The translations under genes and the position numbers were made by a program. A stretch of 64,000 nt of DNA from Bacteroidota bacterium (GTDB lineage Bacteria; Bacteroidota; Bacteroidia; 2-12-FULL-35-15): the NCBI GenBank assembly GCA_947476185.1, contig CANJPX010000010.1:574-64573 (forward strand). Reading direction: 5' to 3'. This document shows positions 29,906 to 49,645 of the stretch, in pieces. Under the pieces are notes generated by a model. It was given only the letters and a program-made list of their open reading frames with translations, did not search any database and was not told where the DNA came from. Each line of letters opens with the position of its first letter. Within the stretch, counting starts at the first letter, position 1.

Positions 29906-32900
29906 TTATGCCTTTTTCTCTGCGTCAGGCTTTTCTCTTTCAAGATCAATTACAATTGGAGTAGCAATACAGATCGAAGAATAGGTTCCGATCGCGATAC
30001 CGATCAACAATGCGAATGCAAAGCCTTTGATCGTTTCTCCACCGAAAATAAAGATCGCCATCATTACAAAGAAAATAGTCAATGCAGTATTGATAGTACG
30101 ACTTAATGTACTGTTCAATGCATAGTTGATCACTTTCACGCGTTCGTTCTTATCAAGATCCGCCTTATTACGTTCTGTCAAGTATTCACGAATACGGTCA
30201 AACACAACTACTGAATCCACCATCGAATAACTCATTACAGTTAAAATTGCAGCGATAAAATCCTGTGTGATCTCTAATGAGAAAGGTAAAACACCATCAA
30301 ATATAGAGTATACAGACAATACAATAAATACGTCATGAAACAAAGCCACAACCGCACCTAAACCATATTGCCATTTTTTGAATCGAATAAAAATGAAGAC
30401 AAACATCACCAAACAAGATAATAAAATAGCCCAGATAGCTTTTGTTTTAATATCACGCGAAACAGTTTCTCCCACTTTCTGAGAACTCATTACCTGATAT
30501 TTTTCATTCAAAGTAGTTAAGCCTTCATTCAACTTCGCCTCTACTGATCCTTCTGCATTTTCTGAAGCATCTTCAATTAAATAAGTTGTTGTGATACGAA
30601 CCTGAGAACCTCCTTCACCGTATGTTTTTACTTCGGGAGCATCACCAAAACTCACTGTTAATGCTTTACGGATATCCTCAGTAGATTTTGGATTATCGAA
30701 ACGAACCACATACGAACGACCACCTTTAAAATCCACCCCTAAGCTAAAACCACCTTTGTGCACATAAGAGAAAACACCAGCAGCAATTACCAAAGAAGAA
30801 AATATATAATACCATTTTCTTTTCCCTACGAAATTGATATTGATATTTTTAAATGCATGAGCAGTATATTTATTACCAAAAGTAATTTCTTTATTTTTTC
30901 CTAACCAACGATCAAACACCAAACGTGTGATAAAGATCGCGCAAAATAAAGATGAAACAATACCAATGATCAATGTAGTAGCAAACCCTTGAATTGGCCC
31001 TGTACCGAATACATATAAGATAATACCCAACAATAATCCGGTGATGTGGGAATCGATCACAGATGACATCGCGTTTCTATAACCTTCTTTTATTGAAACA
31101 GAAACTGCTTTGCCCAGATTCAACTCCTCCCGTACACGTTCGAAGATCAAAATGTTGGCATCCACTGACATGGCAATTGTTAATACGATACCCGCAATAC
31201 CAGGCAATGTTAACACCGCACCGAAAGAGGCAAGAATTCCAATTACAAAAAAGTTATTGATGATCATGGCAAAATCTGCTACTAAACCAGCTTTGCTGTA
31301 ATACAAGACCATAAATACAAATACTAATAGCAACGCTATAATAGTTGAGAAAAAACCTTTTGAAATGGCTTCAGCACCTAATACCGGACCTACAGTTTCT
31401 TCAGCAACAATACGTGCAGGAGCTGGTAATTTACCGGCTTTTAAGATCGTCACTAAGTCGGTTGCTTCTGCCATTGAAAAATGACCGGTAATGGAAGTTG
31501 AACCACCTGCAATTTCTCCATTTATGACAGGATAAGAATAAACGCTATTATCTAAAACGATCGCCACACATTTGCCGACATTATCGCGCGTTAATTTTTT
31601 CCAAATATTTGCGGCATCGGTATTCATTGTCATCGAAATATTCGGAGAACCACCACTTGACTGATCAAATACAACGCGGGCATCAGTAATAATATCACCT
31701 GATAAGGGAGCTGTCCCTCTTGTAACTGAACCATCCATCGCCAATAACATTAATACTTTTTCTGCCTGATCGGATGTTTTAAAGGTCCAGAAGAAACGTG
31801 TATAAGGTTTAAACAATGATCTGATCTTTGGCATACGCAAATATTCACCAATTTGAGCAGTATCTGTGATCAAGGCGTATCCAACAACAGGTCCTTCACC
31901 TAAACCCTGTATCTCATTTTTTTCGTTGTATTTATAAGAAGGATTCATCAAAGAGAACAATGGATTTTCCATTCTCAATTTTTTTGCTGAATCGGCAGCA
32001 GTTGTAGCGACAACTGCAGTAGTGTCCTTCTTAGCATCTCCAAGGTTCTCTGCTAATGAAGTAGATGTAGCTTTTTTAACAGAGTCTTTTGCAACAGCCG
32101 GTGTTTTTCCTTTCACAACAGCTTCTGTAGAATCTTTTGCAGTACTGTCTTTTACTAGAGACGGTGACAATATTTCTTTGAGACGCTTATTTGCTTTTGA
32201 AAAAGCCAATGCAATTCCATTTTTTTCATCGCTATTATCATAAGCGATCCAAAACTCAAGATTTGCTGTTCCTTGCAAAAGTTTACGAACACGTTTTTTA
32301 TCTGTAACACCCGGCAATTCAATAAGGATACGACCAGAAGAAGCTAAACGCTGAATATTCGGTTGAGTAACACCAAATTTATCGATACGCGTACGTAATG
32401 TTTTTTCTGATGTTTCGATGGCTTCATCCATACGGGCACGTAAAAATTTCAACACATCTTCATCGGATGTATTAAAATCTATTTTCCCTTTCAATTCAAT
32501 TGTTTGGAAATTAATTGACAAACGACCTGTTGGATTCAATTTTTTATATTCCTCACCAAACAAGGTCACATAATCTTTAGAAGAAGTTTTCTGAGCAGCT
32601 GTAGCATTTTCCAATGCTTTTGTAAAACTAGGATCATTGCTGTTATTTGATAGTCCGCGAATGATCTCCGGTACAGAGATCTCCAAAGTAACGTTCATAC
32701 CACCTTTCAAATCCAAACCAAGATTTAACTCCCGACTTCTTACTTCCTCGTATTTATATTTAAAAATACCAAGATCAATAACCGGAAGCTTTTTCAGCGA
32801 ATCCAAATAACTATTTTTTCTTGAATTTTTAACAGAATCCAAATACGTTTTTTGTTCAACTTCAGAAGTTGAGATTTTCTTAGATGCCTCTACAACCTCT

Positions 32901-33037
32901 TTCCCCGTTATATAATCTTCAGAATATCTTTTTGCATCCTTTTCGATATTAACGCCTACATAAGTAAACATTAAATAATAAGCACAGGCAAGAGCCAGTA
33001 AAATCGCAAATAGCCTAATTGCACCTTTGTTCTGCAT
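29906..33037 (-). CDS. secDF: protein translocase subunit SecDF (fused SecD-SecF)
   Basis: 1043 aa with two 6-TM SecD/SecF-type membrane modules and a large periplasmic domain. The fused form is typical of Bacteroidota. Confidence 0.9.
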   Translation of the reverse strand: MQNKGAIRLFAILLALACAYYLMFTYVGVNIEKDAKRYSEDYITGKEVVEASKKISTSEVEQKTYLDSVKNSRKNSYLDSLKKLPVIDLGIFKYKYEEVRSRELNLGLDLKGGMNVTLEISVPEIIRGLSNNSNDPSFTKALENATAAQKTSSKDYVTLFGEEYKKLNPTGRLSINFQTIELKGKIDFNTSDEDVLKFLRARMDEAIETSEKTLRTRIDKFGVTQPNIQRLASSGRILIELPGVTDKKRVRKLLQGTANLEFWIAYDNSDEKNGIALAFSKANKRLKEILSPSLVKDSTAKDSTEAVVKGKTPAVAKDSVKKATSTSLAENLGDAKKDTTAVVATTAADSAKKLRMENPLFSLMNPSYKYNEKNEIQGLGEGPVVGYALITDTAQIGEYLRMPKIRSLFKPYTRFFWTFKTSDQAEKVLMLLAMDGSVTRGTAPLSGDIITDARVVFDQSSGGSPNISMTMNTDAANIWKKLTRDNVGKCVAIVLDNSVYSYPVINGEIAGGSTSITGHFSMAEATDLVTILKAGKLPAPARIVAEETVGPVLGAEAISKGFFSTIIALLLVFVFMVLYYSKAGLVADFAMIINNFFVIGILASFGAVLTLPGIAGIVLTIAMSVDANILIFERVREELNLGKAVSVSIKEGYRNAMSSVIDSHITGLLLGIILYVFGTGPIQGFATTLIIGIVSSLFCAIFITRLVFDRWLGKNKEITFGNKYTAHAFKNININFVGKRKWYYIFSSLVIAAGVFSYVHKGGFSLGVDFKGGRSYVVRFDNPKSTEDIRKALTVSFGDAPEVKTYGEGGSQVRITTTYLIEDASENAEGSVEAKLNEGLTTLNEKYQVMSSQKVGETVSRDIKTKAIWAILLSCLVMFVFIFIRFKKWQYGLGAVVALFHDVFIVLSVYSIFDGVLPFSLEITQDFIAAILTVMSYSMVDSVVVFDRIREYLTERNKADLDKNERVKVINYALNSTLSRTINTALTIFFVMMAIFIFGGETIKGFAFALLIGIAIGTYSSICIATPIVIDLEREKPDAEKKA

Positions 33038-36081: not shown

Positions 36082-37224
36082 ATGAAAAAAAATTTATTGC
36101 TTGCATTGATGCTTTTTGCAAGGCAACTATTCGCACAAACAGATAGTTTAAATTCTGACTCATTGCTGCTTCTGCAGATCCAGAACGACATGAAGGAAGC
36201 TGCTGCTCCACCAACAATTCAACAACGAATTGCGGCTTCCGCAAATCCTGATATAAGCGCAATTGGCGATTTTAGGGGATATTACAGAAGTTATGGCAAA
36301 CATAATTTTGATGCTGCACTTCACGAAACCGAATTCTCTTTTCAATCTGTGGTCGATCCATATGCCCGTGCCGATTTCTTTTATTCTGTTGCCGAAGATG
36401 AAAAAACAGGGGAATTTTCAGGTGAGATCGAAGAAGGATATTTGACAACTCTATCTCTGCCGGGGCATTTACAATTAAAAGCAGGAAGATTCAAAGAACA
36501 AATGGGGCGCATAAATCCTGTTCATGCGCATGCACTTCCATTCATTGATATGCCCGATGCGTATGTAAATTTTTTCGGAGAAGATGGATTCAAAGGAGAT
36601 GGTCTTTCCTTAAGTTGGTTATTACCGAATCATTCATTTTTCCAGGAACTAACTGTGGAAGCAACTAATGTAAGCGAGGGTCCGAGTTTTGAAAGAAGTG
36701 CCGGAAATAATTATTTATACAATGCACATCTAAAAAATTTCTGGGACCTTACGGATAATGCAACTTTGGAATTAGGCTTGTCAGGAATGACAGGAGAAAA
36801 TCTGATGAAAAAAATCACCAATATCGGAGCGATCGATCTTACCTATAAATGGAAACCTATCCGTTATAACACCTATAAATCTGTCACATTTCAGAATGAG
36901 TTGTATTATAGTCAGGCAGCACTCGACAGCTCAACAGTTAACGCAATTGGATTTTACTCTTTGCTGAATGTGCAAATTGCAAAACGAAGTTTCCTTGCAG
37001 GAAGATTTGATTATTCAAACAATCCTTACTCAGCAAAATTTGTGCAAGAGTCAGGCTCTTTAACGCTAGGATTTCTGGCAACAGAATTTCAAAAAATTGA
37101 GATAGAAGGGAAATACACAACGATGAATACGGCACTTGCAGAAAATGACAATCAGAAAAAATTTGTCTCAGCATATCTGAGATGGATCTTCGTCATTGGA
37201 TCTCATGGAGCACATACTTATTAA
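36082..37224 (+). CDS. hypothetical secreted outer-membrane (porin-like) beta-rich protein upstream of znuA
   Basis: 380 aa. Signal peptide (..LFAQ). Alternating amphipathic beta-strand pattern with aromatic girdles. No specific family recognised. Confidence 0.4.
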   Translation: MKKNLLLALMLFARQLFAQTDSLNSDSLLLLQIQNDMKEAAAPPTIQQRIAASANPDISAIGDFRGYYRSYGKHNFDAALHETEFSFQSVVDPYARADFFYSVAEDEKTGEFSGEIEEGYLTTLSLPGHLQLKAGRFKEQMGRINPVHAHALPFIDMPDAYVNFFGEDGFKGDGLSLSWLLPNHSFFQELTVEATNVSEGPSFERSAGNNYLYNAHLKNFWDLTDNATLELGLSGMTGENLMKKITNIGAIDLTYKWKPIRYNTYKSVTFQNELYYSQAALDSSTVNAIGFYSLLNVQIAKRSFLAGRFDYSNNPYSAKFVQESGSLTLGFLATEFQKIEIEGKYTTMNTALAENDNQKKFVSAYLRWIFVIGSHGAHTY

Positions 37225-37258
37225 AAAAATAAAAACAATTTTAAAAAAACAAAAAAAA

Positions 37259-38209
37259 ATGAAATCAATTATTAAAAAATACCTGAACTTTAAAAATAAA
37301 GTAAAGCGTAATTCAAAGATCATTACCTCTATATGTATCCTATTTTCAATTAATTCGGCCATTGCGGGTACGATTCATGTTGTCACTACAACACAGGATA
37401 CCAAAAGCATTGCAGAAATAATTGGAGGAACGAAAGTGGATCTTTTTGCCATCGCAACAGGTTATCAGAATCCGCATTTTGTGGATCCAAAACCAAGTTA
37501 TATCATCAAACTTTCGAATGCTGATCTGTATGTAACACTTGGTCTTGATCTGGAAGCAGGATGGTCACCATCGTTGCTGACAAGTTCTAAAAATAAAAAA
37601 ATCCAAAAAGGCAGTGATGGTTATGTTGATGCTTCTGTTGGCGTAAATCTGATGCAAGTACCTTCTTCCATAAATCGTGCGGAAGGTGATATCCATGTAT
37701 TTGGAAACCCTCATTATTGGCTCGATCCATTGAATGGAAAAATTATTGCAAGAAATATTTGTAATGGACTTGAAAAAATATCTCCTGAGAATAAAGATTA
37801 TTTCGAAGCGAATCTAAAAACATTTGACGCACAGATAGATGCAAAAATAAAAGTGTGGACCGCTGCAATGGAGGGGTTTAAAGGAGCGAAAATAATCGCA
37901 TATCACAATGAATGGTGTTACTTCGAAAACCGTTTCGGTTTAAAGATCGTTGATTTTATGGAACCAAAACCGGGCATTCCTCCCTCACCATCACAACTGG
38001 TGAAGATCATAAAAGAGGTAAAAGAAAATAGCATCAAAGTGATCATTACATCGCCTTACTTTACAACCTCTTCATCTGATGTTGTTTCAAAACAGACCGG
38101 TTCAAAAACTGTGGTGTTGGCAACTTCTGTCGGAGCTTTTGATGGAATAAAAAACTATTTCGACTTGTTCGACTACAACATAAAACTATTAAGCGCATCA
38201 CTAAAATAA
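37259..38209 (+). CDS. metal ABC transporter substrate-binding protein (ZnuA/TroA cluster-9 family)
   Basis: About 316 aa from the MKSIIKK start. Signal peptide. Typical cluster A-I SBP organisation (..AEGDIHVFGNPHYWLDP.., ..KIIAYHNEWCYF..). Confidence 0.75.
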   Translation: MKSIIKKYLNFKNKVKRNSKIITSICILFSINSAIAGTIHVVTTTQDTKSIAEIIGGTKVDLFAIATGYQNPHFVDPKPSYIIKLSNADLYVTLGLDLEAGWSPSLLTSSKNKKIQKGSDGYVDASVGVNLMQVPSSINRAEGDIHVFGNPHYWLDPLNGKIIARNICNGLEKISPENKDYFEANLKTFDAQIDAKIKVWTAAMEGFKGAKIIAYHNEWCYFENRFGLKIVDFMEPKPGIPPSPSQLVKIIKEVKENSIKVIITSPYFTTSSSDVVSKQTGSKTVVLATSVGAFDGIKNYFDLFDYNIKLLSASLK

Positions 38210-38251
38210 TCAATACAAATTTTTATTTATTAATTTCTAATTCTATTTATT

Positions 38252-39100
38252 ATGTTCGACATGTTTCAATTGGATTTTATGCTTCTTGCATTTGTGATAA
38301 GCATTATAATAGGTATCTTACTGTCTTATCTTGGCGTGCATGTAGTGGGAAGAGGAATTGTTTTTGTGGATCTTGCACTCGGTCAGATCTCCTCACTTGG
38401 CGTTGCATTTTCTGATTATGTAGGTTATGGCAAAACGATCATCCCGATATTATTTGCTTTGTTCGGAGCATTGCTGATGTCGCTCATCAACATTAAAGAC
38501 AAGCGGCTGAAGCTTGAAGCAGTAATTGGAATTATTTATGCTGTTTCATCTGCAGTAACAGTAATGTTAATCTCCAAAACCCCACATGGTGATTCGGACA
38601 TTCAAGAGGTACTTTTTGGAAATATCCTTTCTATTGATTGGACACAAATAACGATCATCGGAAGTATTTTCGGAGCAATTGCCTTGTTTCATCTTATCTT
38701 TTACAAGAAGTTCTTTTTATTGACCGAATGTTTTGAAACAGAAAACAGCCAACTGGGACAAACAGTCTTTAAGAAAAAAGGCGAATTCAGTTTCTGGAAT
38801 TTCATGTTCTATTTATCAATCGGATTAGCAATTGTATTTGCGGTGAGGGTGAGCGGAGTAATTCCGGTTTTTGCCTTTCTGATAATTCCGGCAGTTGCAT
38901 CGATCATGCTTTTCAAAAATAATCTTGGTCTTGTAATTTCTTCTATACTGATAAGTATCATAGGTGCATTTTTCGGATTGAACGTTTCCTATCATTTTGA
39001 TTTCCCTGCTGGCTCATCATTAGTAGCAGTATTAGGGGGTATTTTCTTCATGATCTCCTTGTTCTATATATTCAAAAGCATGATGAAAAAGAAAAACTGA
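38252..39100 (+). CDS. metal ABC transporter permease (ZnuB/ABC-3 family)
   Basis: 282 aa with 8-9 TM segments, ABC-3 type. Directly follows the SBP gene. No ATPase gene adjacent. Confidence 0.75.
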   Translation: MFDMFQLDFMLLAFVISIIIGILLSYLGVHVVGRGIVFVDLALGQISSLGVAFSDYVGYGKTIIPILFALFGALLMSLINIKDKRLKLEAVIGIIYAVSSAVTVMLISKTPHGDSDIQEVLFGNILSIDWTQITIIGSIFGAIALFHLIFYKKFFLLTECFETENSQLGQTVFKKKGEFSFWNFMFYLSIGLAIVFAVRVSGVIPVFAFLIIPAVASIMLFKNNLGLVISSILISIIGAFFGLNVSYHFDFPAGSSLVAVLGGIFFMISLFYIFKSMMKKKN

Positions 39101-39216
39101 ATTCTAACCGATCATCAAATAAGGAGTATGTGAATAAGTTTCAAATTCGGATACAAATGTTTCAATTTGGCTTTTTCAATAATTAAATATACATTTGTTA
39201 GTATAAAAGTTTAAAA

Positions 39217-39606
39217 TTGAAAAAGTCACTGATCTTATTTTTGACATTCATTTACCTGGTTGTAGCATCAGGCGTGGCTTTTAATTTCCATTACTGCCGA
39301 GGTAAGATCAGCAGCATCTCTCTTGCATTTGTCAGCAACCACGATAATTGTTGTGGAAAAAAGAAAATGACAAAGAAAAACTGTTGTAAAAACAAAACCT
39401 CAGTTTTAAAAATAAACGACAATCAACATTCTTCAACAAATATCAAAGCGCCTTCAACAATCATTACGGCTATTGACGCTAGTTTTACACAGATCAACTT
39501 CAGTGTTGCATCTATCATTGAAGCGAAAACCATTTCAAGAATTCACGCCCCCCCTGATATTTATCAGGATTCGATATACCTGCAATATCGCGTATTGATC
39601 ATTTAG
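39217..39606 (+). CDS. hypothetical small Cys-rich membrane-anchored/secreted protein
   Basis: 129 aa. Hydrophobic N-terminus then HYCRGK..NHDNCCGKKKMTKKNCCKNK. No family recognised. Confidence 0.35.
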   Translation: MKKSLILFLTFIYLVVASGVAFNFHYCRGKISSISLAFVSNHDNCCGKKKMTKKNCCKNKTSVLKINDNQHSSTNIKAPSTIITAIDASFTQINFSVASIIEAKTISRIHAPPDIYQDSIYLQYRVLII

Positions 39607-39763
39607 AATTTTCCTTTTTGTCATTTCCATACTAATTTTCAGTAATGGGAATTTTATGCTTTTGCATATGCCTATGACAACAATTTCTGTATTTCTATTT
39701 CGGGAATAATTACAAACTTATTTTTACAATTTCAATATTTATTAATCATAAAATACAACGCTA

Positions 39764-39997
39764 ATGAAAACTAAAATCATTCTATCAAGTTTCGTACTTT
39801 CAACAATAATTATTTTTTCTTGTAACGGTGAAGCAAAGAAAGATGCCACCGCAACTGAAAATGCGAGTCAGCCTGTAGCAGCTTTTGCTTATACCTGTCC
39901 GATGCATCCTGATGTAAAAAGCGATAAACCGGCACAATGCCCTGATTGTGGAATGGATCTGGAAAAAGTAGAAAAGACAGATAGTATCAGCCATTAG
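39764..39997 (+). CDS. small lipoprotein consisting of a heavy-metal-binding domain (HMBD; YxCPMHP...CPxCGMxL motif)
   Basis: 77 aa. Lipobox ..IIFSC. Motif AYTCPMHPDVKSDKPAQCPDCGMDLEKV matches the HMBD found at N-termini of CusB-like and other metal efflux proteins. Confidence 0.65.
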   Translation: MKTKIILSSFVLSTIIIFSCNGEAKKDATATENASQPVAAFAYTCPMHPDVKSDKPAQCPDCGMDLEKVEKTDSISH

Positions 39998-40099
39998 ATC
40001 CTATAAAATAAATTGTTTTTATGATTCGTCAAATAAAATATTTTAATCATGTTATATAGATTACTATTTTTTCTTCTTCCATTAGGATATCTATTTTCA

Positions 40100-40107
40100 C
40101 CCCCCCC
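40100..40107. repeat. poly-C homopolymer (8 C) at the junction between a signal-peptide ORF and a cytochrome c domain ORF
   Basis: Direct reading of ttttcaCCCCCCCCactt. Frames 40049..40234 and 40150..40470 differ by one position. Confidence 0.9.
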
Positions 40108-40149
40108 ACTTACTTTGCTAAGAGGTTTGAAAAAGAACAGAAAGATACC

Positions 40150-40470
40150 TTGGTTACAATTTCACCAATTGAAAAAATTAAAAAAGGAAAATTATTATTT
40201 GAACAAAACTGTTTGTTGTGTCACGGTGCTTTAGGAAAAGGAGATGGATATGCCGGCATTTATCTAAATCCAAGACCCTTTGACATCAGTTCCGAAAAGG
40301 TACAAATACAAAGTGATTCCACCCTTTTTTTTAAAATCACTCTTGGAAAAGCACCTATGCCAACTTTCAAAGCACTGCCTTTTGAATCAAGATTATATCT
40401 ATTAATGTATGTCAGAGAACTTGGGAAAAATAATAATAAACAGACCGCTAAAAATGATTCGAAGAACTAA
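40150..40470 (+). CDS. class I c-type cytochrome domain (CxxCH); apparently frameshifted from its signal peptide at the poly-C tract
   Basis: ..KLLFEQNCLLCHGALGKGDGYAGIYLNPRPFD.. heme-binding CLLCH. As it stands the ORF starts at a TTG with no export signal. The upstream frame-2 ORF (40049..) encodes MLYRLLFFLLPLGYLFSPPP. Confidence 0.6.
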   Translation: MVTISPIEKIKKGKLLFEQNCLLCHGALGKGDGYAGIYLNPRPFDISSEKVQIQSDSTLFFKITLGKAPMPTFKALPFESRLYLLMYVRELGKNNNKQTAKNDSKN

Positions 40471-41674
40471 CTACTGCATATGGATAATTATTTTTTCTTT
40501 TTTAATAGTTGAAAAAGGAGAAGCAATAAATAATGACACCATTTCAAAAAAAGAAAACTTTAAATTCTCCCGAATTGTATTTTCCGGAAACGGTTATTGT
40601 GGAGTCGATGTACATTTAAATAAGTCTCTAAAAGACAGTACGGGAATGGAATCTACATCCCTTCCAATTGGTTTGGCTCCAATCATATTATGGAAGCTCA
40701 CACCTCAGTTATTTATTGAAAGTGAATTCGATTTTATGATGGATCATGGAATGTTAAGTGGAGAAATTGGATATGCAAATTTATGCTACTCCACGAATAA
40801 ATTGGGCACGATACAAATAGGAAAATTTCTTAGTCCGTTCGGAATTTATTCAGAACGCTATCACCCATTTTGGATAAATAATGCTCCAAATACACCGTTG
40901 GGATTCGCACATGAAGGATCTTCACCTGAATCAGAGTTAGGTGTTTGTTATAAAGTAGGTTCCAAACATTTTACATATGCTATGTATGCATCTTTGAGTC
41001 CAAAAATAGATGGAGGGAGTGAAAATGTAAAAAATGCAGGTAAAATTATTTTCCACATTGATCTGAGAGAAAAGTTCAATAAAAAAATTGGTTTGGGCGC
41101 TCGAGTAGGAATTTTGCCATTTAAAAACCCTTCTATAGAACTGGGACTTTCCTATAAATGGATGCAATTGGAAGTTGGCGAACATTACGATGGAACAGCG
41201 GTCACACACACGCATCCATCTGGCGAGCAATCAAAATATTACATTGGGAATATGTATGCTGTTGATCTTACGATTGAAAAAATCCTTGCCCGATTGAAAG
41301 GTAAGATTGATATAAAAGCACAAGTAAATTACACAGATGTTGGAACTAATAATTTTATAAAAACTAGTCCAAGTGGAATTACTGAAATTGATTATTCTTA
41401 TTCAAATAAGAGTGAAATTGGATTTGCAATGCTATCCTTTAAACCAATATTAGTTGACAATTACATCCTAAAAAGATCAGGAATATTTGTACGTGGAGGG
41501 ACCTTACAATTGCCTATTGGTTCTTTATGGTACGAGACAACCTATGAAATCACAGCTGGATTAAATTATTCATTTAATTGGCAAAATATCCTGAAAATAG
41601 GATACCAGCAGATTTCAACTGCAAAAAAAGGTTATACAAATAATATATTGTTACAATGGGCTGTAGGTTTTTAA
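40454..41674 (+). CDS. hypothetical outer-membrane beta-barrel protein
   Basis: About 406 aa from MIRRTNYCIWIIIFSFLIV. Amphipathic beta-strand pattern. C-terminal ..LLQWAVGF ends in Phe (OM barrel signature). Confidence 0.45.
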   Translation: MIRRTNYCIWIIIFSFLIVEKGEAINNDTISKKENFKFSRIVFSGNGYCGVDVHLNKSLKDSTGMESTSLPIGLAPIILWKLTPQLFIESEFDFMMDHGMLSGEIGYANLCYSTNKLGTIQIGKFLSPFGIYSERYHPFWINNAPNTPLGFAHEGSSPESELGVCYKVGSKHFTYAMYASLSPKIDGGSENVKNAGKIIFHIDLREKFNKKIGLGARVGILPFKNPSIELGLSYKWMQLEVGEHYDGTAVTHTHPSGEQSKYYIGNMYAVDLTIEKILARLKGKIDIKAQVNYTDVGTNNFIKTSPSGITEIDYSYSNKSEIGFAMLSFKPILVDNYILKRSGIFVRGGTLQLPIGSLWYETTYEITAGLNYSFNWQNILKIGYQQISTAKKGYTNNILLQWAVGF

Positions 41675-41688
41675 ATAGAAAATTCGTA

Positions 41689-41940
41689 ATGCTAACAATT
41701 TGCTTTGCGCTTGCATTTATTATTCATAGTTGCAAAACAAAAAATGAGCTAATAATAGAAAAAAGCGGAGCTCAACTTTGGGGAGAAAATTGTGGCCGCT
41801 GTCATAACACACCTGACCCAACAACATATACAGATGAAAAATGGGAAACTGTTGCCATGCATATGAAAGTCAGGGCAAATATATCTTCCAAAGAAATCGT
41901 TTTGATCAAGGAATTTTTGAAATCAGCAAATGGCGATTAA
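41689..41940 (+). CDS. small lipoprotein with a single CxxCH heme-binding motif
   Basis: 83 aa from MLTICFALAFIIHSC (lipobox). ..LWGENCGRCHNTPDP.. Ends 11 nt before the TonB-dependent receptor gene. Confidence 0.55.
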   Translation: MLTICFALAFIIHSCKTKNELIIEKSGAQLWGENCGRCHNTPDPTTYTDEKWETVAMHMKVRANISSKEIVLIKEFLKSANGD

Positions 41941-41950
41941 AAATTAAATA

Positions 41951-44185
41951 ATGAAAAAACTATATTATAAATATATCATCCTTCTTGGAATCCTGTTCAT
42001 TACTATTCTGAGCACAAATGCTCAAAATATTGCAGGAACTGTATTTGGAATAAATGATAAAGGGTTAAATGAAATTCTTCCAGGTGCAAATGTATATTGG
42101 AAAGGAACATCCATTGGCACTTCAACAGATATTAATGGCAAATTTCAAGTTCCAAACCCTGAAGCGGTTCCCTCCAAATTAATTATCAGCATGATTGGTT
42201 TTATGAGCGACACAATGACAATTGAAAAACCAGATCAATTGAATATAAAAGTTGTATTAAAAAGCAGCATCACATTAAAAACTGTCAATATTGAAGCGAA
42301 ACAAAATTCCACAATGTATTCAACTTTTAACCCAATCAATTCTGAAGTAATTAGTGGAAAGGAATTACTTAAAGCTGCCTGCTGCAACCTTTCGGAAAGT
42401 TTCAGCACGAATGCCTCTGTTGATGTCGCATTTACCGATGCAGTCTCTGGAGCAAAAAAAATTCAAATGCTTGGACTTGATGGTGTGTATACACAAGTGT
42501 TATCTGAGAATATGCCGATGTTAAGAGGATTGTCAGCGGCTTACGGTTTAAATTATATTCCAGGCACATGGATTGACAACATCTTAGTTACCAAAGGAAC
42601 AGGATCTGTAGTGAATGGATATGAAAGTATATCAGGACAAATCAATCTTGAGTTTTTAAAACCACAAAATCAAAAAAAACGTTTGTTTATTAATTTGTAT
42701 GCAAATGAAAAAGGGCGGGATGAAATAAATGTCCATTTGGCAAAAAAATTTAATACAAAATGGACAACACTTCTATTTACCCATTTGAGTGATATGAGCA
42801 TGAAGAATGATGCTAATAAAGATGGATTTTTAGATATGCCCTTAACTCGTCAATACAATATTTTTAACCGATGGGATTATCATAATCAGAAAAATTTCGA
42901 ACAGCAGTTTGGAATAAAAGCACTTTATGAAATGCGTCAAGGAGGACAAACAAATTTCAATTACAACAGAGATCATGATAGCACAAGTGCTTATGGTATA
43001 GGTATCAATACTACTGCTTTAGAATATTTTTCAAAAACAGGATTCATGTTTCCATCAAGACCTTTAAAGAGCGTTGGTATTCAAACTTCAGGAAAATGGC
43101 AACAACAAGAAATGTATTTTGGTATAAGAAAATACAATGGAGAACAAAAGAATTTTTATACAAATATCATTTATGCAAACTTCATCAACAATACAGATCA
43201 CAAATATAAATTGGGTGCAAGCTATATGTTAGATGATTATTCAGAAAAGTACAACGACTCATCTTTTACCAGAACAGAAAGTGTTCCCGGAGTATTTGCC
43301 GAATATACTTATACACACCCTGATAATTTTTCTATCGTTATCGGCGGCCGCGCAGATTACCATAACATGTATGGAATACAATATACACCACGTTTGCATT
43401 TACGTTTCAATGCAACAAAAACAACTACTTTTAGGCTATCAGGAGGCAGAGGCTTCAGAACATCAAACATTTTTGTGGAAAACCAATCTGTATTCGCAAG
43501 TTCAAGAAAGGTCGTAATCGCAGAAAAGCTTAAGCCTGAAATTGCTTGGAACTATGGCGTTTCGGCTAATCAAAAATTTACTTTATTCGATAATGAAGCT
43601 TCTGTAAATGTTGATTTTTTCAGAACCGATTTTCAGAATCAAGTAATCGTTGATATTGATCAAAGCGTAAACAAAGTGGTGTTTTATAATTTAAATGGAA
43701 GATCTTATTCCAATAGTTTGCAAATTGATTGTGGTTATTCTCCCATAAAAATGTTTGACATAAAGGTTGCCTATAAATGGTACGATGTTAAAACAACATA
43801 TAATTATGAATTACTCGACAAGCCCTATATTCCAAAGCATCGCGTGATGTTCAATATGGCATATTCAACATATATGGATATTTGGAAATTTGATTTTACA
43901 ACAAATTGGCTAGGAGAAAGCAGATTGCCAAGTACAGAATTATCTCCTATTGAATATAAATTACCAAAACATTCAAACCCTTACTTTTTACTAAATGCGC
44001 AGATTACAAAAAAATTTAAAACATTTGAACTTTACTTGGGTTGCGAAAACATTTTGAATTACACGCAGAGAAATCCAATCATTGCCTCAGAAAACCCATT
44101 TGGCAGCAACTTCGATGCTTCAATGATCTATGCACCTATTGAAGGTCGAAATATTTATGGGGGATTCAGAATGAGTATCAAATAA
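41951..44185 (+). CDS. TonB-dependent outer-membrane receptor with N-terminal carboxypeptidase-regulatory-like domain
   Basis: 744 aa. Signal peptide, CarbopepD_reg-like start (..NIAGTVFGINDKGLNEILPGANVYW..), plug, 22-strand barrel length. Contains a CC pair (..LLKAACCNLSESF..). Confidence 0.85.
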   Translation: MKKLYYKYIILLGILFITILSTNAQNIAGTVFGINDKGLNEILPGANVYWKGTSIGTSTDINGKFQVPNPEAVPSKLIISMIGFMSDTMTIEKPDQLNIKVVLKSSITLKTVNIEAKQNSTMYSTFNPINSEVISGKELLKAACCNLSESFSTNASVDVAFTDAVSGAKKIQMLGLDGVYTQVLSENMPMLRGLSAAYGLNYIPGTWIDNILVTKGTGSVVNGYESISGQINLEFLKPQNQKKRLFINLYANEKGRDEINVHLAKKFNTKWTTLLFTHLSDMSMKNDANKDGFLDMPLTRQYNIFNRWDYHNQKNFEQQFGIKALYEMRQGGQTNFNYNRDHDSTSAYGIGINTTALEYFSKTGFMFPSRPLKSVGIQTSGKWQQQEMYFGIRKYNGEQKNFYTNIIYANFINNTDHKYKLGASYMLDDYSEKYNDSSFTRTESVPGVFAEYTYTHPDNFSIVIGGRADYHNMYGIQYTPRLHLRFNATKTTTFRLSGGRGFRTSNIFVENQSVFASSRKVVIAEKLKPEIAWNYGVSANQKFTLFDNEASVNVDFFRTDFQNQVIVDIDQSVNKVVFYNLNGRSYSNSLQIDCGYSPIKMFDIKVAYKWYDVKTTYNYELLDKPYIPKHRVMFNMAYSTYMDIWKFDFTTNWLGESRLPSTELSPIEYKLPKHSNPYFLLNAQITKKFKTFELYLGCENILNYTQRNPIIASENPFGSNFDASMIYAPIEGRNIYGGFRMSIK

Positions 44186-44220
44186 TAATAAACACAATTA
44201 AAAATCAAAAACTAAAAAAA

Positions 44221-44580
44221 ATGAAAAGAAAACTATTTACGGGAATCATAGCCGTGCTTTTGCTATTTTCTTCAAACGTAAAAGCACAAGATTTAAAAAG
44301 TGCGGAAATAAAAATTAAGACTTCTGCAACTTGCGACATGTGCAAAAAAACAATAGAAAGTGCTCTCGCATTCGAAAAAGGCGTAAAAAAATCAACGTTG
44401 GATGTACCTACAAAAATAGTTACAGTTGTATACAACCCAAAGAAAACAACGCCAGAAAAAATTCGACTGGCAATTTCCAATGCAGGATATGAAGCTGACA
44501 GCTTAAAAGCTAATCCTAAAGCATGGAGCAACTTAGAGGATTGTTGCAAAAAAGGCACCACTTGTGAAGAAAAAAAATAA
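44221..44580 (+). CDS. periplasmic heavy-metal-associated (HMA) domain protein (copper-chaperone-like)
   Basis: 119 aa. Signal peptide. HMA fold with metal-binding ..TSATCDMCKKTIESAL.. (CxxC). C-terminal ..EDCCKKGTTCEEKK Cys cluster. Confidence 0.75.
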   Translation: MKRKLFTGIIAVLLLFSSNVKAQDLKSAEIKIKTSATCDMCKKTIESALAFEKGVKKSTLDVPTKIVTVVYNPKKTTPEKIRLAISNAGYEADSLKANPKAWSNLEDCCKKGTTCEEKK

Positions 44581-44785: not shown

Positions 44786-45559
44786 ATGAAAAAAATAATA
44801 CTAATCACTCTTGCCGGCATTATCTCTAGTTTTGGCTTTGCACAAACGACAGCAACAGACTTCACAGTAAATGATTGTTCCGGAACTTCACATCATCTTT
44901 TCGCTGAATTGGATGCAGGTAAAGTTATTGTAATTGCTTTTGTAATGCCATGCACTTCTTGTATCGCACCATCTGTTTCTGCTTATTCGGAAGTACAAAA
45001 CTATGCAAGCACTTATCCTGGACGTGTTTTATTTTATTTATCCGATGACCTGGGAACTGCTACCTGTTCATCAATAACAAACTGGGGAACAACAAATGGA
45101 ATAACCGGAGTTCCAGTGTTTTGCAATACCGCTGTCAAACAAGCAGATTATGGTGCAGCAGCAATGCCTAAAATTGTAGTTTTAGGTGGTCCTACTCATA
45201 CTGTTCTTTTTTCGCAAGACAATGGATTGAATGTAACAAATTTCAATGCTGCTATTAATTTAGGATTAGTTGCAGGCATCTTTGAAAATTCAAAATCCGA
45301 CTTCGAATTGTCAGTTTTCCCTAATCCTTCAAAGACAGATAAAACCACTATAAACTACACTCTGAAAGAAGGTTCTGATGTCACCGTTGACATTTATAAT
45401 ACAATTGGTGAAAAAGTTAAGACCATCGCGCTTGAAAAGCAAGCTGCAGGAAAACACGAATCAATATTAGATTTTGAATCATTGACCAATGGAATTTATT
45501 TCATAAAGTTGAATGCGGGAGAATCATCTCAAGTACTCAAATTCAGTGTTTCACATTAA
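44786..45559 (+). CDS. thioredoxin-fold (TlpA/redoxin-like, CxxC) protein with T9SS type A C-terminal sorting domain
   Basis: 257 aa. Signal peptide. ..GKVIVIAFVMPCTSCIAPS.. redoxin-type active site. C-terminal ..LSVFPNPSKTDKTTINYTL..GIYFIKLNAG.. T9SS C-terminal domain. Confidence 0.65.
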   Translation: MKKIILITLAGIISSFGFAQTTATDFTVNDCSGTSHHLFAELDAGKVIVIAFVMPCTSCIAPSVSAYSEVQNYASTYPGRVLFYLSDDLGTATCSSITNWGTTNGITGVPVFCNTAVKQADYGAAAMPKIVVLGGPTHTVLFSQDNGLNVTNFNAAINLGLVAGIFENSKSDFELSVFPNPSKTDKTTINYTLKEGSDVTVDIYNTIGEKVKTIALEKQAAGKHESILDFESLTNGIYFIKLNAGESSQVLKFSVSH

Positions 45560-45646: not shown

Positions 45647-46756
45647 ATGCGTTCTCTTATTTTTATTGCAACGACAATTCTATTCGCAAATAATATTTAT
45701 TCGCAAGGATGTTGTTCAGGTGGCAGTGGCAGTCCAATTGCAGGAGGAGCTTCACAGGGAGTCCTTCAAGACAGACAGGTTGAAGTTGCAGCAAATTATC
45801 AATACATCAACACGAATAAATTTAAATCCGGTGACAAAGATACGGCAGCTTTATTCGATGGATTCACAAGTAACTACATGTATCTTCGATTAGCATATGG
45901 CCTGACAAAAAACCTGACCATGTCTGTTGAATCAGGATATTATTTAAATAAAACACAAATCGGATTAAACAGAGTCGATACATTTAGTTCAGCCGGAATT
46001 GGCGACCTGATTTTATTTCCAAGATATGATGTATTAAACAGAACATCAGAAAAAAAACGCACAGAAATCACCTTGGGTATCGGACTAAAAATTCCATTAG
46101 GCATGTATGACGACTCAACTCTTTTTTACACAAACCCATATACAAGAAAACAGCTTTTCAGACCGTCACCTCCTTCAGTACAACCCTCTACAGGAGCGAA
46201 TGATTTTATTTTTTACGGCTTCTTTTACAGAGGTTATCCTGAAAAAAAATTCAGAGTATTCATGAATACATTATACGTTCGCAAAGGCTGGAGTCCAATT
46301 GGAGCGAAATTCGGGGATTACGCAAGTGTCGGTTTATTTGCCGGTCAAACCTTCTTTAAAAAATTAGGAGTTACCATACAGGTAAAAGGAGAATGGATCG
46401 GAAAAATGAAAGCCAGCCAAAATGCAGATGATATGATGAATATGTATAATGTGGATATCGTTTCAACAGGCAGCCGAAAAATATTATTTGTGCCTCAGCT
46501 TAGTTATAGCTATAACAGCTTCTCTATTTATGCCTTGACAGAAATTCCGCTTTACCAATATGTCAACAAAGTACAAGTAGCATCGCAAGTTCAGGCAACT
46601 GTGGGGATTTCATATCGATTTAATGCGTATAAAAAAATAGCCGTTAAAAGTGATTCGCAAAGTCTTTATGTTTGTCCGATGGGCTGTGTTGGAAGCGAAA
46701 GCAATGAACCTGGAAAATGCAAAGAATGCGGAATGGAATTAATAAAAAGAAAATAA
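45647..46756 (+). CDS. outer-membrane beta-barrel protein with N-terminal Cys-rich stretch and C-terminal heavy-metal-binding domain (HMBD) extension
   Basis: 369 aa. Signal peptide then QGCCSGGSGSP. Barrel body ending ..VGISYRF. C-terminal tail ..YVCPMGCVGSESNEPGKCKECGMELIKRK is the same YxCPM...CxxCGMxL motif as the 39764 lipoprotein. Confidence 0.55.
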   Translation: MRSLIFIATTILFANNIYSQGCCSGGSGSPIAGGASQGVLQDRQVEVAANYQYINTNKFKSGDKDTAALFDGFTSNYMYLRLAYGLTKNLTMSVESGYYLNKTQIGLNRVDTFSSAGIGDLILFPRYDVLNRTSEKKRTEITLGIGLKIPLGMYDDSTLFYTNPYTRKQLFRPSPPSVQPSTGANDFIFYGFFYRGYPEKKFRVFMNTLYVRKGWSPIGAKFGDYASVGLFAGQTFFKKLGVTIQVKGEWIGKMKASQNADDMMNMYNVDIVSTGSRKILFVPQLSYSYNSFSIYALTEIPLYQYVNKVQVASQVQATVGISYRFNAYKKIAVKSDSQSLYVCPMGCVGSESNEPGKCKECGMELIKRK

Positions 46757-46767
46757 AAAATAATCGA

Positions 46768-47544
46768 ATGAAAAAATTATTGACACTTATTTCTGTATTC
46801 TTATTTGTTTCAGTGTCTTTATACGGGCAAACAGCAATTGACTGGACCAAACTAGATTGTTCAGGAATCAGCCATAATCTTTATACGTATTTAAATAATG
46901 AGGATGTTGTAATTATGGAATTTGCTATGGGTTGTAGCAGTTGTACCAATGCCGGAGCACGACTACTTAGTATAAAAGACAAATATGCAATTTCTAATCC
47001 TGGGAAAGTAAACGTATTCTATATGGATTACTGGCCTGGAAATACCTGTGCAACTGTTGTTTTACCTACAACTACGCCTTATGCCTTTGATGCTGTATTT
47101 GATCATTCACTTGCAGAAAAAGATAATTATTTTGCTAGCTCCTCTCCAATGCCCGGTATTGCAATTGCTGCGGGAAGTTCACATCAGATAATTTATCAGG
47201 TAAATAGTTTTGTTGATGCTGATACTACATTAATTGAACAAGCAATCACTGCATTTTTCGCAACAGCAAACATTAAAGAAAACCTTTTCGAAAATACAAT
47301 AACACTTTCTCCAAATCCCTCCACTGGAGATGTAATAATTAATTTTACAAATACAGAAACAGAAAACATTAATATTTCACTTTTTAATTTAAATGGTCAA
47401 TTGATTAAAGGACTCTTTAATGAGAAAGTATCAGTTGGAGATTTCAAAAAAATAATTGATATCCGATCCTATCCTAAAGGCTTATATTACATTAACATTT
47501 CCAATTCAAAATACTCAATTAACAAAAAGATAGTTGTAAATTAA
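46768..47544 (+). CDS. thioredoxin-fold (CxxC) protein with T9SS type A C-terminal sorting domain, paralogue of 44786..45559
   Basis: Signal peptide MKKLLTLISVFLFVSVSLYGQ. ..DVVIMEFAMGCSSCTNAG.. C-terminal ..TLSPNPSTGDVIINF..GLYYINIS.. T9SS C-terminal domain. Collinear similarity with the 44786 protein (..DCSG.SH.L...L.....V.I..F.M.C.SC..). Confidence 0.65.
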   Translation: MKKLLTLISVFLFVSVSLYGQTAIDWTKLDCSGISHNLYTYLNNEDVVIMEFAMGCSSCTNAGARLLSIKDKYAISNPGKVNVFYMDYWPGNTCATVVLPTTTPYAFDAVFDHSLAEKDNYFASSSPMPGIAIAAGSSHQIIYQVNSFVDADTTLIEQAITAFFATANIKENLFENTITLSPNPSTGDVIINFTNTETENINISLFNLNGQLIKGLFNEKVSVGDFKKIIDIRSYPKGLYYINISNSKYSINKKIVVN

Positions 47545-47580: not shown

Positions 47581-47970
47581 TTGTTTCATAACGAAATACT
47601 ATTGAAATCATTTATTGCACTATTAATTGCTTTTGCCATTATTTTCCAATCAGCCGGAAAGCTAATTATTATTGTGCATTACTCCTTAAACAAAGAATAC
47701 ATTTCAAAAAACTTATGTGAAAACAGAGCAAAGCCAAAAATGCATTGCAACGGTAAATGTCATTTAAAAAAGGAATTACAAAAAGAAGACAAGAAAGATA
47801 ATTCTCCATCAAATAATTTAAAAGAAAAGTATGAAGTACAATTTTTCGAAAAATTTAAAAAAATAATAAATATCCTGCCTTTCAGCGAAAGAGAAAAAGC
47901 TACAACAACTTATTTGTTTCCATTCTCATCTGAGGACCTGAGCGCCATATTTCACCCACCACAATCATAA
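47581..47970 (+). CDS. hypothetical small membrane-anchored Cys/His-rich protein
   Basis: 129 aa. N-terminal TM segment then ..HYSLNKEYISKNLCENRAKPKMHCNGKCHLKK... Loosely similar layout to the 39217 protein. Confidence 0.3.
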   Translation: MFHNEILLKSFIALLIAFAIIFQSAGKLIIIVHYSLNKEYISKNLCENRAKPKMHCNGKCHLKKELQKEDKKDNSPSNNLKEKYEVQFFEKFKKIINILPFSEREKATTTYLFPFSSEDLSAIFHPPQS

Positions 47971-48165
47971 TTAACGATAAAATTTAATTTTCCGTGTTGC
48001 CTTTTTGCAGATGGCATAAACTATTAACATTTCTGTTGATGGATGTTTTTTTACATGCAATTATTTGGTTACGGGAAAAAGTTCACATTTTTAGAACTAC
48101 TTTTTAGAAAAACAAATCAATTATCGATTTGTTATATTTTTATTTATCTAATAATTATAAATATT

Positions 48166-48954
48166 ATGAAACCACATAAAATATTTTTCGCATTTTTTTT
48201 ATCAGTTACACTTCTTGCTTCATCTTGTAAAAAAGACAAAGATGAAGAAACGCCAACACCTTCAGTTCCCGCTGCCACATCTGGAAGCCTGGCACTTCAT
48301 TTTGAAAATATGGTGGGAGATAGTGCCTTGGTAATGAATACCGAATCATATGTAACTGCAAACAATGATACAATTACTGTTTCTGCATTTAAATATTATA
48401 TCAGCAACATTGTATTAACTAAAAGCGGTGGAGGAACATATGTTGAAAATGAGAGTTACCATTTAATTGATGCTTCTGACTTATTAACCGGTGAATTTAC
48501 TCTTCCAAATGTTCCTTTCGGGGATTACACAGGAATTACATTTATGATCGGTGTTGACAGTACACGGAATGTTTCAGGTGCACAAACCGGAGCATTAGAT
48601 CCTGTAAATGGAATGTACATGGGAATGGGTGCAGGTTATATCCAAGCAACCTTGGAAGGATTATCTCCACAGTCAACATCTGGAGGGCACATGTTCATGT
48701 ACCAAGTTGCTGGATTCCAAGGAATATACAACCCTCTTAAAACTATTTCTCCAACTTTTTCAGGTGGTATCGCCACTGTCACATCAAGTGTTATTCCAGA
48801 AATTCACTTCAAAACGAATTTATTAGAATGGTTCACAACGCCTAACAACATTAGCATTTCCGCTGTGAGTATGGTAATGTCTGTTAACTCAACAAGTCTA
48901 AATTTCGCTGACAACTATGCAGACATGATAAGCGTTGAACACATACACAATTAA
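48166..48954 (+). CDS. lipoprotein, possibly MbnP-like (copper-associated periplasmic protein family)
   Basis: From MKPHKIFFAFFLSVTLLASSC (lipobox). ..FKYYISNIVLTKSGGGTYVENESYHLIDAS.. and C-terminal ..NFADNYADMISVEHIHN resemble what I recall of Bacteroidota MbnP-family proteins. Tentative. Confidence 0.4.
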   Translation: MKPHKIFFAFFLSVTLLASSCKKDKDEETPTPSVPAATSGSLALHFENMVGDSALVMNTESYVTANNDTITVSAFKYYISNIVLTKSGGGTYVENESYHLIDASDLLTGEFTLPNVPFGDYTGITFMIGVDSTRNVSGAQTGALDPVNGMYMGMGAGYIQATLEGLSPQSTSGGHMFMYQVAGFQGIYNPLKTISPTFSGGIATVTSSVIPEIHFKTNLLEWFTTPNNISISAVSMVMSVNSTSLNFADNYADMISVEHIHN

Positions 48955-48961
48955 TAAATAT

Positions 48962-49021
48962 AGTATCATATAGTCGCTTCGTGGATCTTTCTATTACGGC
49001 TATATGATACTTTTATAATTT
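48962..49021 (+). terminator. rho-independent terminator after the MbnP-like gene
   Basis: 15-bp inverted repeat AGTATCATATAGTCG / CGGCTATATGATACT (1 mismatch) followed by TTTTATAATTT. Confidence 0.5.
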
Positions 49022-49161
49022 CTAAAAGGAGTCAATTGCAATTTGATAATCTGACTAATAATTTATAGGCATAAAAAATATTTTTATAAGAAAAAAACTA
49101 ACAAAAGAAATATCATTTTATATCAAGAAAAGAACCTTAACTTTAACTTAAATTAAAAAAA

Positions 49162-49545: not shown

Positions 49546-49645
49546 AAAAATTTGAAGCTCAAATCGATTTGACATCACGTTTTATTTTTTAAAGAACTAC
49601 GATTAACGAAAAACTTAACCATTCCGATTTTTATTATTTATTAAA

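Follow-up and report, generated by a model that had tools for sequence, protein, structure and literature searches.

Two heavy-metal-binding domains (HMBDs) have been studied, and each is built into a larger transport protein. The structure 8OVL, solved by nuclear magnetic resonance (NMR), is the HMBD of the Legionella Cu(I) ATPase LpCopA; NMR and inductively coupled plasma mass spectrometry put Ag+, a surrogate for Cu+, on M44, C59 and M61, with C42, H45 and C56 near the Ag+ site in a zinc-ribbon-like arrangement (PMC11970713). In E. coli, M49, M64 and M66 of the N-terminal region of the adaptor CusB (CusB_NT) are the Cu(I) ligands; CusB_NT, which alone is not fully functional, takes up Cu(I) from CusF and triggers the Cus pump (PMC6715271). 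Here we describe an HMBD that stands alone, as a 77-residue lipoprotein encoded by an open reading frame (ORF) at 39764..39997 on the forward strand of a 64-kb stretch of Bacteroidota DNA (contig CANJPX010000010.1; the whole stretch is hereafter the window). Its conserved partner is the gene immediately upstream, a member of the HYC_CC_PP family, and we lean cautiously towards a reading in which the lipoprotein, tethered in the periplasm, binds Cu(I)/Ag(I) and acts together with HYC_CC_PP next to copper transporters, in the manner of CusF and CusB_NT.

The gene divides into the following parts.

39764..39997, forward strand: free HMBD lipoprotein gene, with an ATG start, 77 residues and the stop codon within the span
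39764..39823, forward strand: signal peptide and lipobox; MKTKIILSSFVLSTIIIFSC passes the lipobox rule, and the Cys20 codon lies at 39821-39823
39824..39886, forward strand: low-complexity linker, residues 21-41 (~21 residues), a flexible tether
39887..39973, forward strand: HMBD core, residues 42-70, Y-T-C45-P-M47-H48...C59-P-D-C62-G-M64-D-L, identified by Pfam, a PDB match and AlphaFold2 (AF2)
39974..39994, forward strand: C-terminal tail KTDSISH, 7 residues, conserved across relatives

The 77 encoded residues are MKTKIILSSFVLSTIIIFSCNGEAKKDATATENASQPVAAFAYTCPMHPDVKSDKPAQCPDCGMDLEKVEKTDSISH, exactly as quoted in an earlier reading of this DNA made without database searches (the sequence-only reading). 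A word-indexed homology search with the protein as query returned 13 relatives and an identical database copy (P0001), and close relatives are annotated in the database as 'hypothetical protein'. The relatives are 73-83 residues long in 12 of 13 cases. Identity to the window protein is 64-84% for eleven, 44-51% for P0013 and P0014, and ~40% for P0012, which at 122 residues is a two-repeat protein without a lipobox and with a different tail. All relatives share the MKTKI start. The chain ends in SH (D-S/N-x-S-H) in 10 of the 13, in AH in P0011 and in KK in P0013 and P0014, and D73 of the tail is nearly invariant in the subfamily alignment. A codon-level comparison of seven orthologous genes gave a pooled ratio of non-synonymous to synonymous differences (pN/pS) of 0.25; by region, the ratio is lowest in the tail (0.12) and the HMBD (0.17), intermediate in the signal peptide (0.24) and highest in the linker (0.45). 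Because length and tail are conserved and pN/pS is low, the ORF is a selected coding gene of fixed architecture under purifying selection; on the same three features, we reject the reading as a pseudogene or a fragment of a larger transporter gene.

The domain assignment of the sequence-only reading was borne out by profile search. Pfam HMBD PF19335 matches residues 43-69 at 50.1 bits (gathering cutoff 23.6) with an E-value of 2.5e-13, and the match spans profile positions 2-28 of 28. The motif C-P-M-H...C-P-x-C-G-M-x-L is complete and, apart from H48, invariant in the subfamily alignment. When the PDB was searched by sequence, the metal-binding domain (MBD) of LpCopA (8OVL/3RFU) came up at E 2.5e-8, or 2e-11 with a profile. 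AF2, run on the subfamily alignment, gave a confident core at residues 41-70 with a predicted local distance difference test score (pLDDT) of ~86. With this predicted structure as the query, Foldseek returned 8OVL as the best PDB match of the modelled core, at a root-mean-square deviation of 1.1 Å over 29 residues, 52% identity, a template-modelling score (target) of 0.70 and a probability of 1.0. The core is predicted to fold as a zinc-ribbon-like pair of β-hairpins, as in the LpCopA domain.

The putative metal ligands are conserved along with the fold. In the HMMER alignment, M44, C59 and M61 of LpCopA fall on M47, C62 and M64 of the window protein, and C42, H45 and C56 on C45, H48 and C59. 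The E. coli CusB ligands M49, M64 and M66 also align in register with M47, C62 and M64, in a weak match. Across 509 HMBD repeats drawn from the best database representatives, each Met position is 92% conserved and the His position 86%. A purely structural Zn site would not need the two methionines. Because the ligands of LpCopA and CusB are conserved and the Met positions are kept family-wide, our best guess by analogy is that the lipoprotein would bind Cu(I)/Ag(I). Zn(II) binding by the HMBD, or a purely sensory role, is possible, because the LpCopA HMBD is regulatory and the Cys/His set is Zn-like.

The lipoprotein differs from each described system in ways that bear on its function. With the LpCopA HMBD (8OVL, residues 35-68) it shares the Pfam domain, the YTCPMHP...CPxCGM motif, the Ag+/Cu+ ligands and the fold, but the LpCopA domain is cytoplasmic, fused to its pump and acts with an autoinhibitory tail, whereas the window protein is predicted to be exported, lipid-anchored and free. 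CusB_NT (residues 28-88) is closer in setting, as it is periplasmic, lies N-terminally after the export signal, has the three aligning ligands and goes with a CusA-type RND pump, and the orthologs of the window gene likewise stand beside a putatively CusA-like pump. CusB_NT, however, has no cysteines and sits inside a 407-residue adaptor, whereas the window protein keeps the four-Cys set and has no adaptor domains. The NCBIfam CusB model NF007303 does match it (E 2.6e-5; 22.8 bits against a cutoff of 390; profile positions 9-74), over the N-terminal ~67 residues, but the score is far under the cutoff and the similarity is at the domain level only. Adaptors of the CusB/CzcB kind have barrel-sandwich, β-barrel and hairpin domains (such as HlyD_D23) and reach ~400 residues or more; the window protein, at 77 residues, is too short for one, and Pfam finds no HlyD family match.

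CusF, the small periplasmic carrier from which the N-terminal site of the adaptor obtains Cu(I), has the same proposed job. It is a soluble protein with an oligonucleotide/oligosaccharide-binding (OB) fold and a Met2-His-Trp site, encoded with a Cus-type pump. Its fold is unrelated to that of the window protein, there is no sequence or profile similarity, and it is not lipidated, so that the likeness is functional only; the HMBD ORF has no CusF family match (Pfam E <=0.1, NCBIfam E <=0.01), and its fold is that of an HMBD. The HMA family PF00403 has a ferredoxin-like fold with MxCxxC. The same islands also encode periplasmic HMA/CopZ- or MerP-like proteins, small exported binders of soft metals that use cysteines; the HMBD ORF gives no Pfam match to this HMA/CopZ/MerP family, whereas the ORF at 44221-44580 of the window does. 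One paper's use of PF19335 for an MxCxxC ferredoxin-like chaperone (PMC13254101) was set aside, as its description suits HMA. Secreted multi-HMBD proteins and fusions of the domain to membrane fusion proteins (MFPs) or P-type ATPases, known from Bacteroidota and other phyla under the NCBI name 'heavy metal-binding domain-containing protein', share with the window protein the domain, the export and the copper-transport neighbourhoods. In the secreted multi-HMBD proteins, 2-4 repeats behind a signal-peptidase-I signal are usual; members of the window subfamily instead combine a single repeat with a lipobox and a tether, and their tails mostly end in SH.

The N-terminus of the protein reads MKTKIILSSFVLSTIIIFS-C20, with the lipobox IIFS-C20. 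The sequence-only reading had pointed to this box (IIFSC), and it agrees with a rule in the style of PROSITE PS51257 that asks for a K within the first 7 residues, no charge in the 6 residues preceding the box, [..]{2}-F-S-C and a Cys at 15-35, here found at 20. The Cys is retained in 13 of the 14 sequences of the subfamily alignment. The protein is thus a predicted substrate of signal peptidase II, lipidated at Cys20. In Bacteroidota, lipoproteins bound for the cell surface carry K-(D/E)2 or Q-A-(D/E)2 directly past the +1 Cys (PMC5080379). Neither signal is present after Cys20, where the residues are NGEAKKD, and the orthologs read N-[NST]-x-x-K-K-[DE] at this place, with no acidic pair and a net neutral or basic charge. 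Because no surface-export signal follows Cys20, we infer that the lipoprotein faces the periplasm; exposure at the cell surface was judged unlikely on the same ground. Between the anchor and the domain, AF2 gave a pLDDT <50 at residues 23-39, indicating disorder, and the linker is rich in insertions and deletions, varying in sequence and length between orthologs.

Free-standing HMBDs are not unusual. The sequence-only reading took the domain to be normally an appendage of larger proteins, which implies that the free form is odd, a view that the database does not support. HMMER, run exhaustively against 1.84 billion cluster representatives, gave 18,122 matches at E <=1e-3, and 68 of the best 149 are no longer than 200 residues. 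A regular expression found one to three HMBD motifs in 64 of these 68, most of which lack a lipobox and resemble ordinary secreted proteins. Scores add up over repeats, so the best matches favour multi-repeat proteins and single-repeat lipoproteins are undercounted. Among 79 genome loci of GTDB species representatives, fetched by HMBD peptide patterns with 10-kb flanks, 26-27 (about one third) encode a free HMBD protein of <=200 residues; single-repeat free HMBDs are often lipoproteins (L006, L018, L025, L076, L081). Some of the 79 loci come from isolates, among them Niastella vici, Pedobacter flavus and Flavobacterium daejeonense. The phyla with HMBD loci include Bacteroidota, Ignavibacteria, Verrucomicrobiota and Elusimicrobiota. 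The free-standing HMBD is a common, already catalogued protein type, and the window gene is one more member.

The genes around the free HMBD are more informative than the domain's mere presence. Two further features lie directly upstream.

39217..39606, forward strand: HYC_CC_PP (DUF8199) gene, NCBIfam NF047658, 56.8 bits against a cutoff of 28
39607..39763, forward strand: spacer between HYC_CC_PP and HMBD genes, 157 nucleotides (nt), with a conserved first ~80 nt that contains palindromes

The HYC_CC_PP product is a small, Cys-rich protein of 129 residues with an N-terminal hydrophobic segment, and the family is annotated PF26622 / DUF8199 in L005 and L088. Although it is the gene immediately upstream, the sequence-only reading did not name it. 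A HYC_CC_PP gene directly adjoins the free HMBD gene in the window and in L005, L008, L009, L010, L011, L025, L029, L065, L075, L076 and L081, and lies one gene apart in L004 and L033; the adjacency reaches distant Bacteroidota lineages. In a count over the 26 genome loci with a free HMBD, direct adjacency stands at 10. The conserved partner of the free HMBD is the upstream HYC_CC_PP, not the cytochrome or the barrel protein downstream. Many HYC_CC_PP proteins, among them those of L016, L031, L033, L065, L072, L074 and L075, carry the signature 'HYCM...C-x-x-C-G-M' (as at 2892-3287 of L065). This signature, in place of which the window subfamily has CCGKKKM, resembles both halves of the HMBD motif, and the HYC_CC_PP family may be related to the HMBD, in a degenerate and membrane-anchored form.

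The spacer and the cassette as a whole have features of their own. The block at 39607-39690 (~80 nt) is kept in six orthologous loci and contains TGTCA...TGACA and CTTATGC...GCATAAG. The consensus RNA fold of the six orthologous spacers is weak (-6.5 kcal/mol, one compensatory pair), Rfam gave no match anywhere in the 64-kb window, spacer included, and a sigma-70 and terminator scan of the spacer was uninformative, its promoter model not covering Bacteroidota. The block may act as an operator, terminator or attenuator. When the window (39100-43500) is aligned with its close relative L008 (1-4363), nucleotide identity steps at ~40000: the HYC-HMBD segment at 39100-40000 is ~80-90% identical and the downstream genes 95-100%. 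This step suggests a divergence history of the cassette different from that of its neighbours, through recombination, replacement or faster evolution.

In relatives, the cassette mostly stands beside efflux genes. Genes for resistance-nodulation-division (RND) pumps, MFPs or outer-membrane efflux proteins (OEPs) lie <=4 genes away in ~16 of 26 free-HMBD loci, and P-type ATPases in 6 of 26. The gene downstream of the free HMBD is a large RND pump in L004, L005, L009, L010, L018, L029 and L065, a P-type ATPase in L033 and L083, and a TonB-dependent receptor (TBDR) in L075. An RND pump comes next in the longer orthologous loci that continue past the HMBD gene (L004, L005, L009, L010). If the contig extends beyond the pump, genes for an outer-membrane factor and for an adaptor bearing its own HMBD come after it. 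The best-resolved ortholog locus, L009, encodes an HMBD protein 74% identical to that of the window, and its gene order is a type IX secretion system (T9SS) protein, a HYC-like protein, a TBDR, HMA, HYC_CC_PP, HMBD, an RND pump (1275 residues), an outer-membrane factor, an adaptor (HMBD+DUF3347), a T9SS protein, a HYC-like protein and a 2xHMBD+HMA protein. The fourth transmembrane segment (TM4) of this pump contains the motif GIAIAIGVMVDLGIVDVEN. In the RND classes reportedly set out by Nies in 2003, CusA has AIG...VD and CzcA has DFG...DGA at this place. We take the L009 motif to resemble CusA rather than CzcA, as a lead from this one motif. A genome survey of the flavobacterium Bizionia reported no CusF, CueP or Csp1 homolog and a CusB with Cys at the M64 position (PMC11213822); by its sequence pattern, this CusB region would itself be an HMBD.

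Taken together, these observations suggest a tethered binder, a reading to which we give somewhat more credence than doubt. The lipidated Cys20 would anchor the protein, a disordered tether of ~20 residues would follow, and one 30-residue HMBD would face the periplasm. M47, C62 and M64 would form a tri-sulfur Cu(I)/Ag(I) site at the hairpin tip, with C45, H48 and C59 adjacent. HYC_CC_PP and HMBD would make up a two-gene cassette put beside copper-handling transporters in Bacteroidota; in relatives, the transporter is mostly an RND efflux pump, putatively CusA-like, with a further HMBD on its adaptor. Periplasmic Cu(I) would be captured and then passed on, or signalled, by ligand exchange between like domains, a job that would parallel that of CusF and CusB_NT in E. 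coli.

Several points weigh against this reading. The CusB alignment is weak (E 0.23; 0.048 with a profile). The LpCopA HMBD was judged a regulatory, copper-sensing domain rather than one for ion delivery, and the HMBD fold together with the C42/H45/C56/C59 set of LpCopA resembles Zn sites (PMC11970713). ZnuA and ZnuB genes directly upstream of the cassette are compatible with Zn(II), and the four cysteines of the protein may form disulfides in the oxidising periplasm. Among the large ORFs of the 64-kb window there is no RND pump or P1B-ATPase, so that the acceptor to be expected from the orthologous loci is not seen here. Adjacency amounts to co-inheritance or co-regulation and is no proof of physical transfer, and the nearest orthologous loci do not count as independent of one another. 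A literature search on PF19335/HMBD and on HYC_CC_PP/DUF8199/DUF3347 returned no experimental study of a free HMBD protein, and no biochemical or expression data for any such protein were found there.

Downstream of the cassette, three features of the window have to be considered as possible recipients or partners.

40049..40470, forward strand: c-type cytochrome gene (CLLCH), frameshifted; Pfam Cytochrom_C/CBB3 in two frames
41951..44580, forward strand: TonB-dependent receptor (41951-44185) and secreted HMA/CopZ-like protein (44221-44580), from Pfam
45647..46756, forward strand: barrel-like protein of 369 residues with a C-terminal HMBD (residues 341-367, nt 46667-46747)

A 1-nt deletion, leaving a C8 run at 40100-40107, splits the cytochrome c gene between two frames, a frameshift that the sequence-only reading had noticed correctly. 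L008 reads CCCCCCTCC here, and its ortholog is intact, as a 152-residue ORF with a signal peptide. The change is a loss of 1 nt in the window, because the DNA alignment shows the L008 ORF intact; either an assembly error in the homopolymer or a genuine pseudogene could account for it. The series from HMBD through cytochrome c, the 421-residue protein and a further cytochrome c to the TBDR occurs only in the window and in L008. Haem, bound via CxxCH, is the cofactor of c-type cytochromes, and no donor of Cu, Ag or Zn is required.

The second HMBD of the window, on the barrel-like protein, was likewise predicted correctly. Pfam detects it at E 5e-7 and 30 bits, 6.7 kb downstream of the free HMBD, and a six-frame scan for the motif turns up no third copy in the window. 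The protein has 1,358 relatives, which among the 120 listed take two forms, one of ~367 residues with an HMBD and one of ~330-340 without. The barrel fold is putative; one relative carries PF13557, and one fusion relative bears the NCBI name 'heavy metal-binding domain-containing protein'. The sequence-only reading proposed checking whether free HMBDs co-occur with barrel-HMBD fusions in other genomes, and a free HMBD lies within 10 kb of the fusion in 0 of 3 such loci (L087-L089). The barrel homolog of L010 has no HMBD. The barrel gene is always preceded by a gene for a ~257-residue protein with a T9SS tail (in the window and in L087-L089, ~9140-9980), and the two genes are a separate conserved module. 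In the window, T9SS-tail proteins of ~257-275 residues with CxxC (PCTSC, GCSSC) flank the barrel gene on both sides, at 44786-45559 and 46717-47544; such a protein may be a secreted thiol-disulfide oxidoreductase.

The cassette heads a ~15-kb copper/zinc island in the window. The gene order is a 380-residue protein, ZnuA, ZnuB, HYC_CC_PP, the HMBD lipoprotein, the frameshifted cytochrome c, a 421-residue protein, cytochrome c, the TBDR, the secreted HMA, a T9SS-tail CxxC protein, the barrel-HMBD protein, a second T9SS-tail CxxC protein, a 129-residue Cys/His-rich protein, MbnP, a 127-residue protein, a beta-propeller and a DCC1-like oxidoreductase. The island points to copper because the syntenic relative island L088 carries two multicopper oxidases. 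The ZnuA-like and ABC-3/ZnuB-like genes occupy 37196-39100, and the scanned ORFs of >=100 residues between 33 and 52 kb include no match to an ABC ATPase. The 380-residue (36082-37224) and 421-residue (40409-41674) proteins, which end in HTY and VGF, match no Pfam or NCBIfam family and are possible candidates for outer-membrane barrels; the latter is conserved with the cytochrome c/TBDR module in L008. The 129-residue protein (47581-47970), between the second T9SS protein and MbnP, begins with a hydrophobic segment, is rich in Cys and His over the stretch HCNGKCHLKKE and matches no family. The block at 48043-51519, syntenic in L088, contains an MbnP-family gene (E 1.6e-46), with no MbnH-type peroxidase seen in it; then come the 127-residue protein, the beta-propeller protein of 486 residues with a weak cytochrome-like N-terminus (CATPGCH), and the DCC1-like oxidoreductase. 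Elsewhere in the window, the large ORF at 29906-33037 is SecDF, and the remaining large ORFs encode housekeeping or surface proteins. From ~56280 to 64000, a single ORF, at least 2,570 codons long, continues beyond the window end, with the GC content rising from ~0.34 to 0.46, and is probably a giant surface protein.

Against this background, the tethered-binder reading can be set beside its alternatives. The sequence-only reading proposed a metallochaperone role, with the neighbouring cytochrome c or the barrel-HMBD protein further downstream as recipient. Metal handling remains the most reasonable role for the lipoprotein, but the named recipients did not hold up, and we regard the proposal as improbable. 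The genes are indeed close (40049-40470 and 45647-46756), and an HMBD occurs in both the lipoprotein and the barrel protein, such that exchange between the two domains is conceivable. The cytochrome, however, is a haem protein whose gene is frameshifted and which follows the HMBD gene only in the window and L008, an RND pump coming next in L004, L005, L009 and L010. The barrel-HMBD loci L087-L089 have no free HMBD, the L010 barrel and much of its family have no HMBD, and the constant partner of the barrel is the T9SS-tail protein. A role on the uptake side, in which Cu or Zn would be captured for the TBDR cluster at the surface, as Bacteroidota surface lipoproteins do for their TBDRs, or in the periplasm after import, has more in its favour and is still rather unlikely. 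The order of cassette, cytochrome c, 421-residue protein, cytochrome c, TBDR and HMA in the window and L008, the free 2xHMBD gene directly upstream of a TBDR in L075, the TBDR-HMA pair just upstream of HYC_CC_PP-HMBD in L004 and L009, and the presence in the island of ZnuA/ZnuB and MbnP, which are uptake-type components, all fit it. It is opposed by the lack of a canonical surface-export signal after Cys20 and by the efflux components that are the commonest neighbours across loci, and a TBDR beside an efflux operon may merely reflect a common copper island. Least probable of all, to the point that we give it very little weight, is a structural Zn-ribbon peptide without a trafficking role, or a remnant of an adaptor or ATPase gene. 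The fold is like that of Zn domains, C45, H48, C59 and C62 could hold Zn(II), and the protein resembles the first ~74 residues of profile NF007303; yet the gene is under purifying selection with conserved length, stop and tail, the two Met residues are 92% conserved, and the metal-transport neighbourhood is consistent.

The lipoprotein may instead be a trans-acting metal sensor or switch, in which loading would alter binding to HYC_CC_PP or to a transporter and so gate transport; this we consider unlikely, though with real precedents. The LpCopA study ascribed copper sensing and regulation to the HMBD core (PMC11970713), and CusB_NT is the trigger of the Cus pump (PMC6715271), the former relieving autoinhibition and the latter activating its pump. 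The constancy of a small Cys-rich partner, HYC_CC_PP, with no particular transporter, would also suit a switch. However, in both precedents the domain is covalently within the protein that it regulates, whereas here it is a separate lipoprotein, and many free HMBD proteins have 2-4 repeats, which are better suited to capacity or buffering. A more ambitious and tentative proposal is that HYC_CC_PP and the free HMBD form an undescribed, portable periplasmic Cu(I) relay or sensor that replaces CusF and docks onto HMBD-bearing partners. These partners would be an RND adaptor, a P1B-ATPase-associated protein or, in the window, the barrel-HMBD fusion. A mobile cassette of two related metal binders fits because of the HYC signature, the greater divergence of the cassette from L008 and the palindromic spacer; we hold this doubtful at present, while retaining the simpler tethered Cu(I)/Ag(I) binder as the explanation that we favour.

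Periplasmic copper handling in Bacteroidota is poorly understood, and free HMBD proteins are very numerous in the databases. The value of the present analysis lies mainly in the corrected partners of one such protein, and the HYC_CC_PP-HMBD cassette is the one point that may be worth experiments. If the favoured reading is true, the lipoprotein would provide a free-standing and biochemically tractable counterpart to the two studied HMBDs, those of LpCopA and CusB_NT, and a tethered HMBD with HYC_CC_PP would fill a gap in the metal homeostasis of a major phylum.

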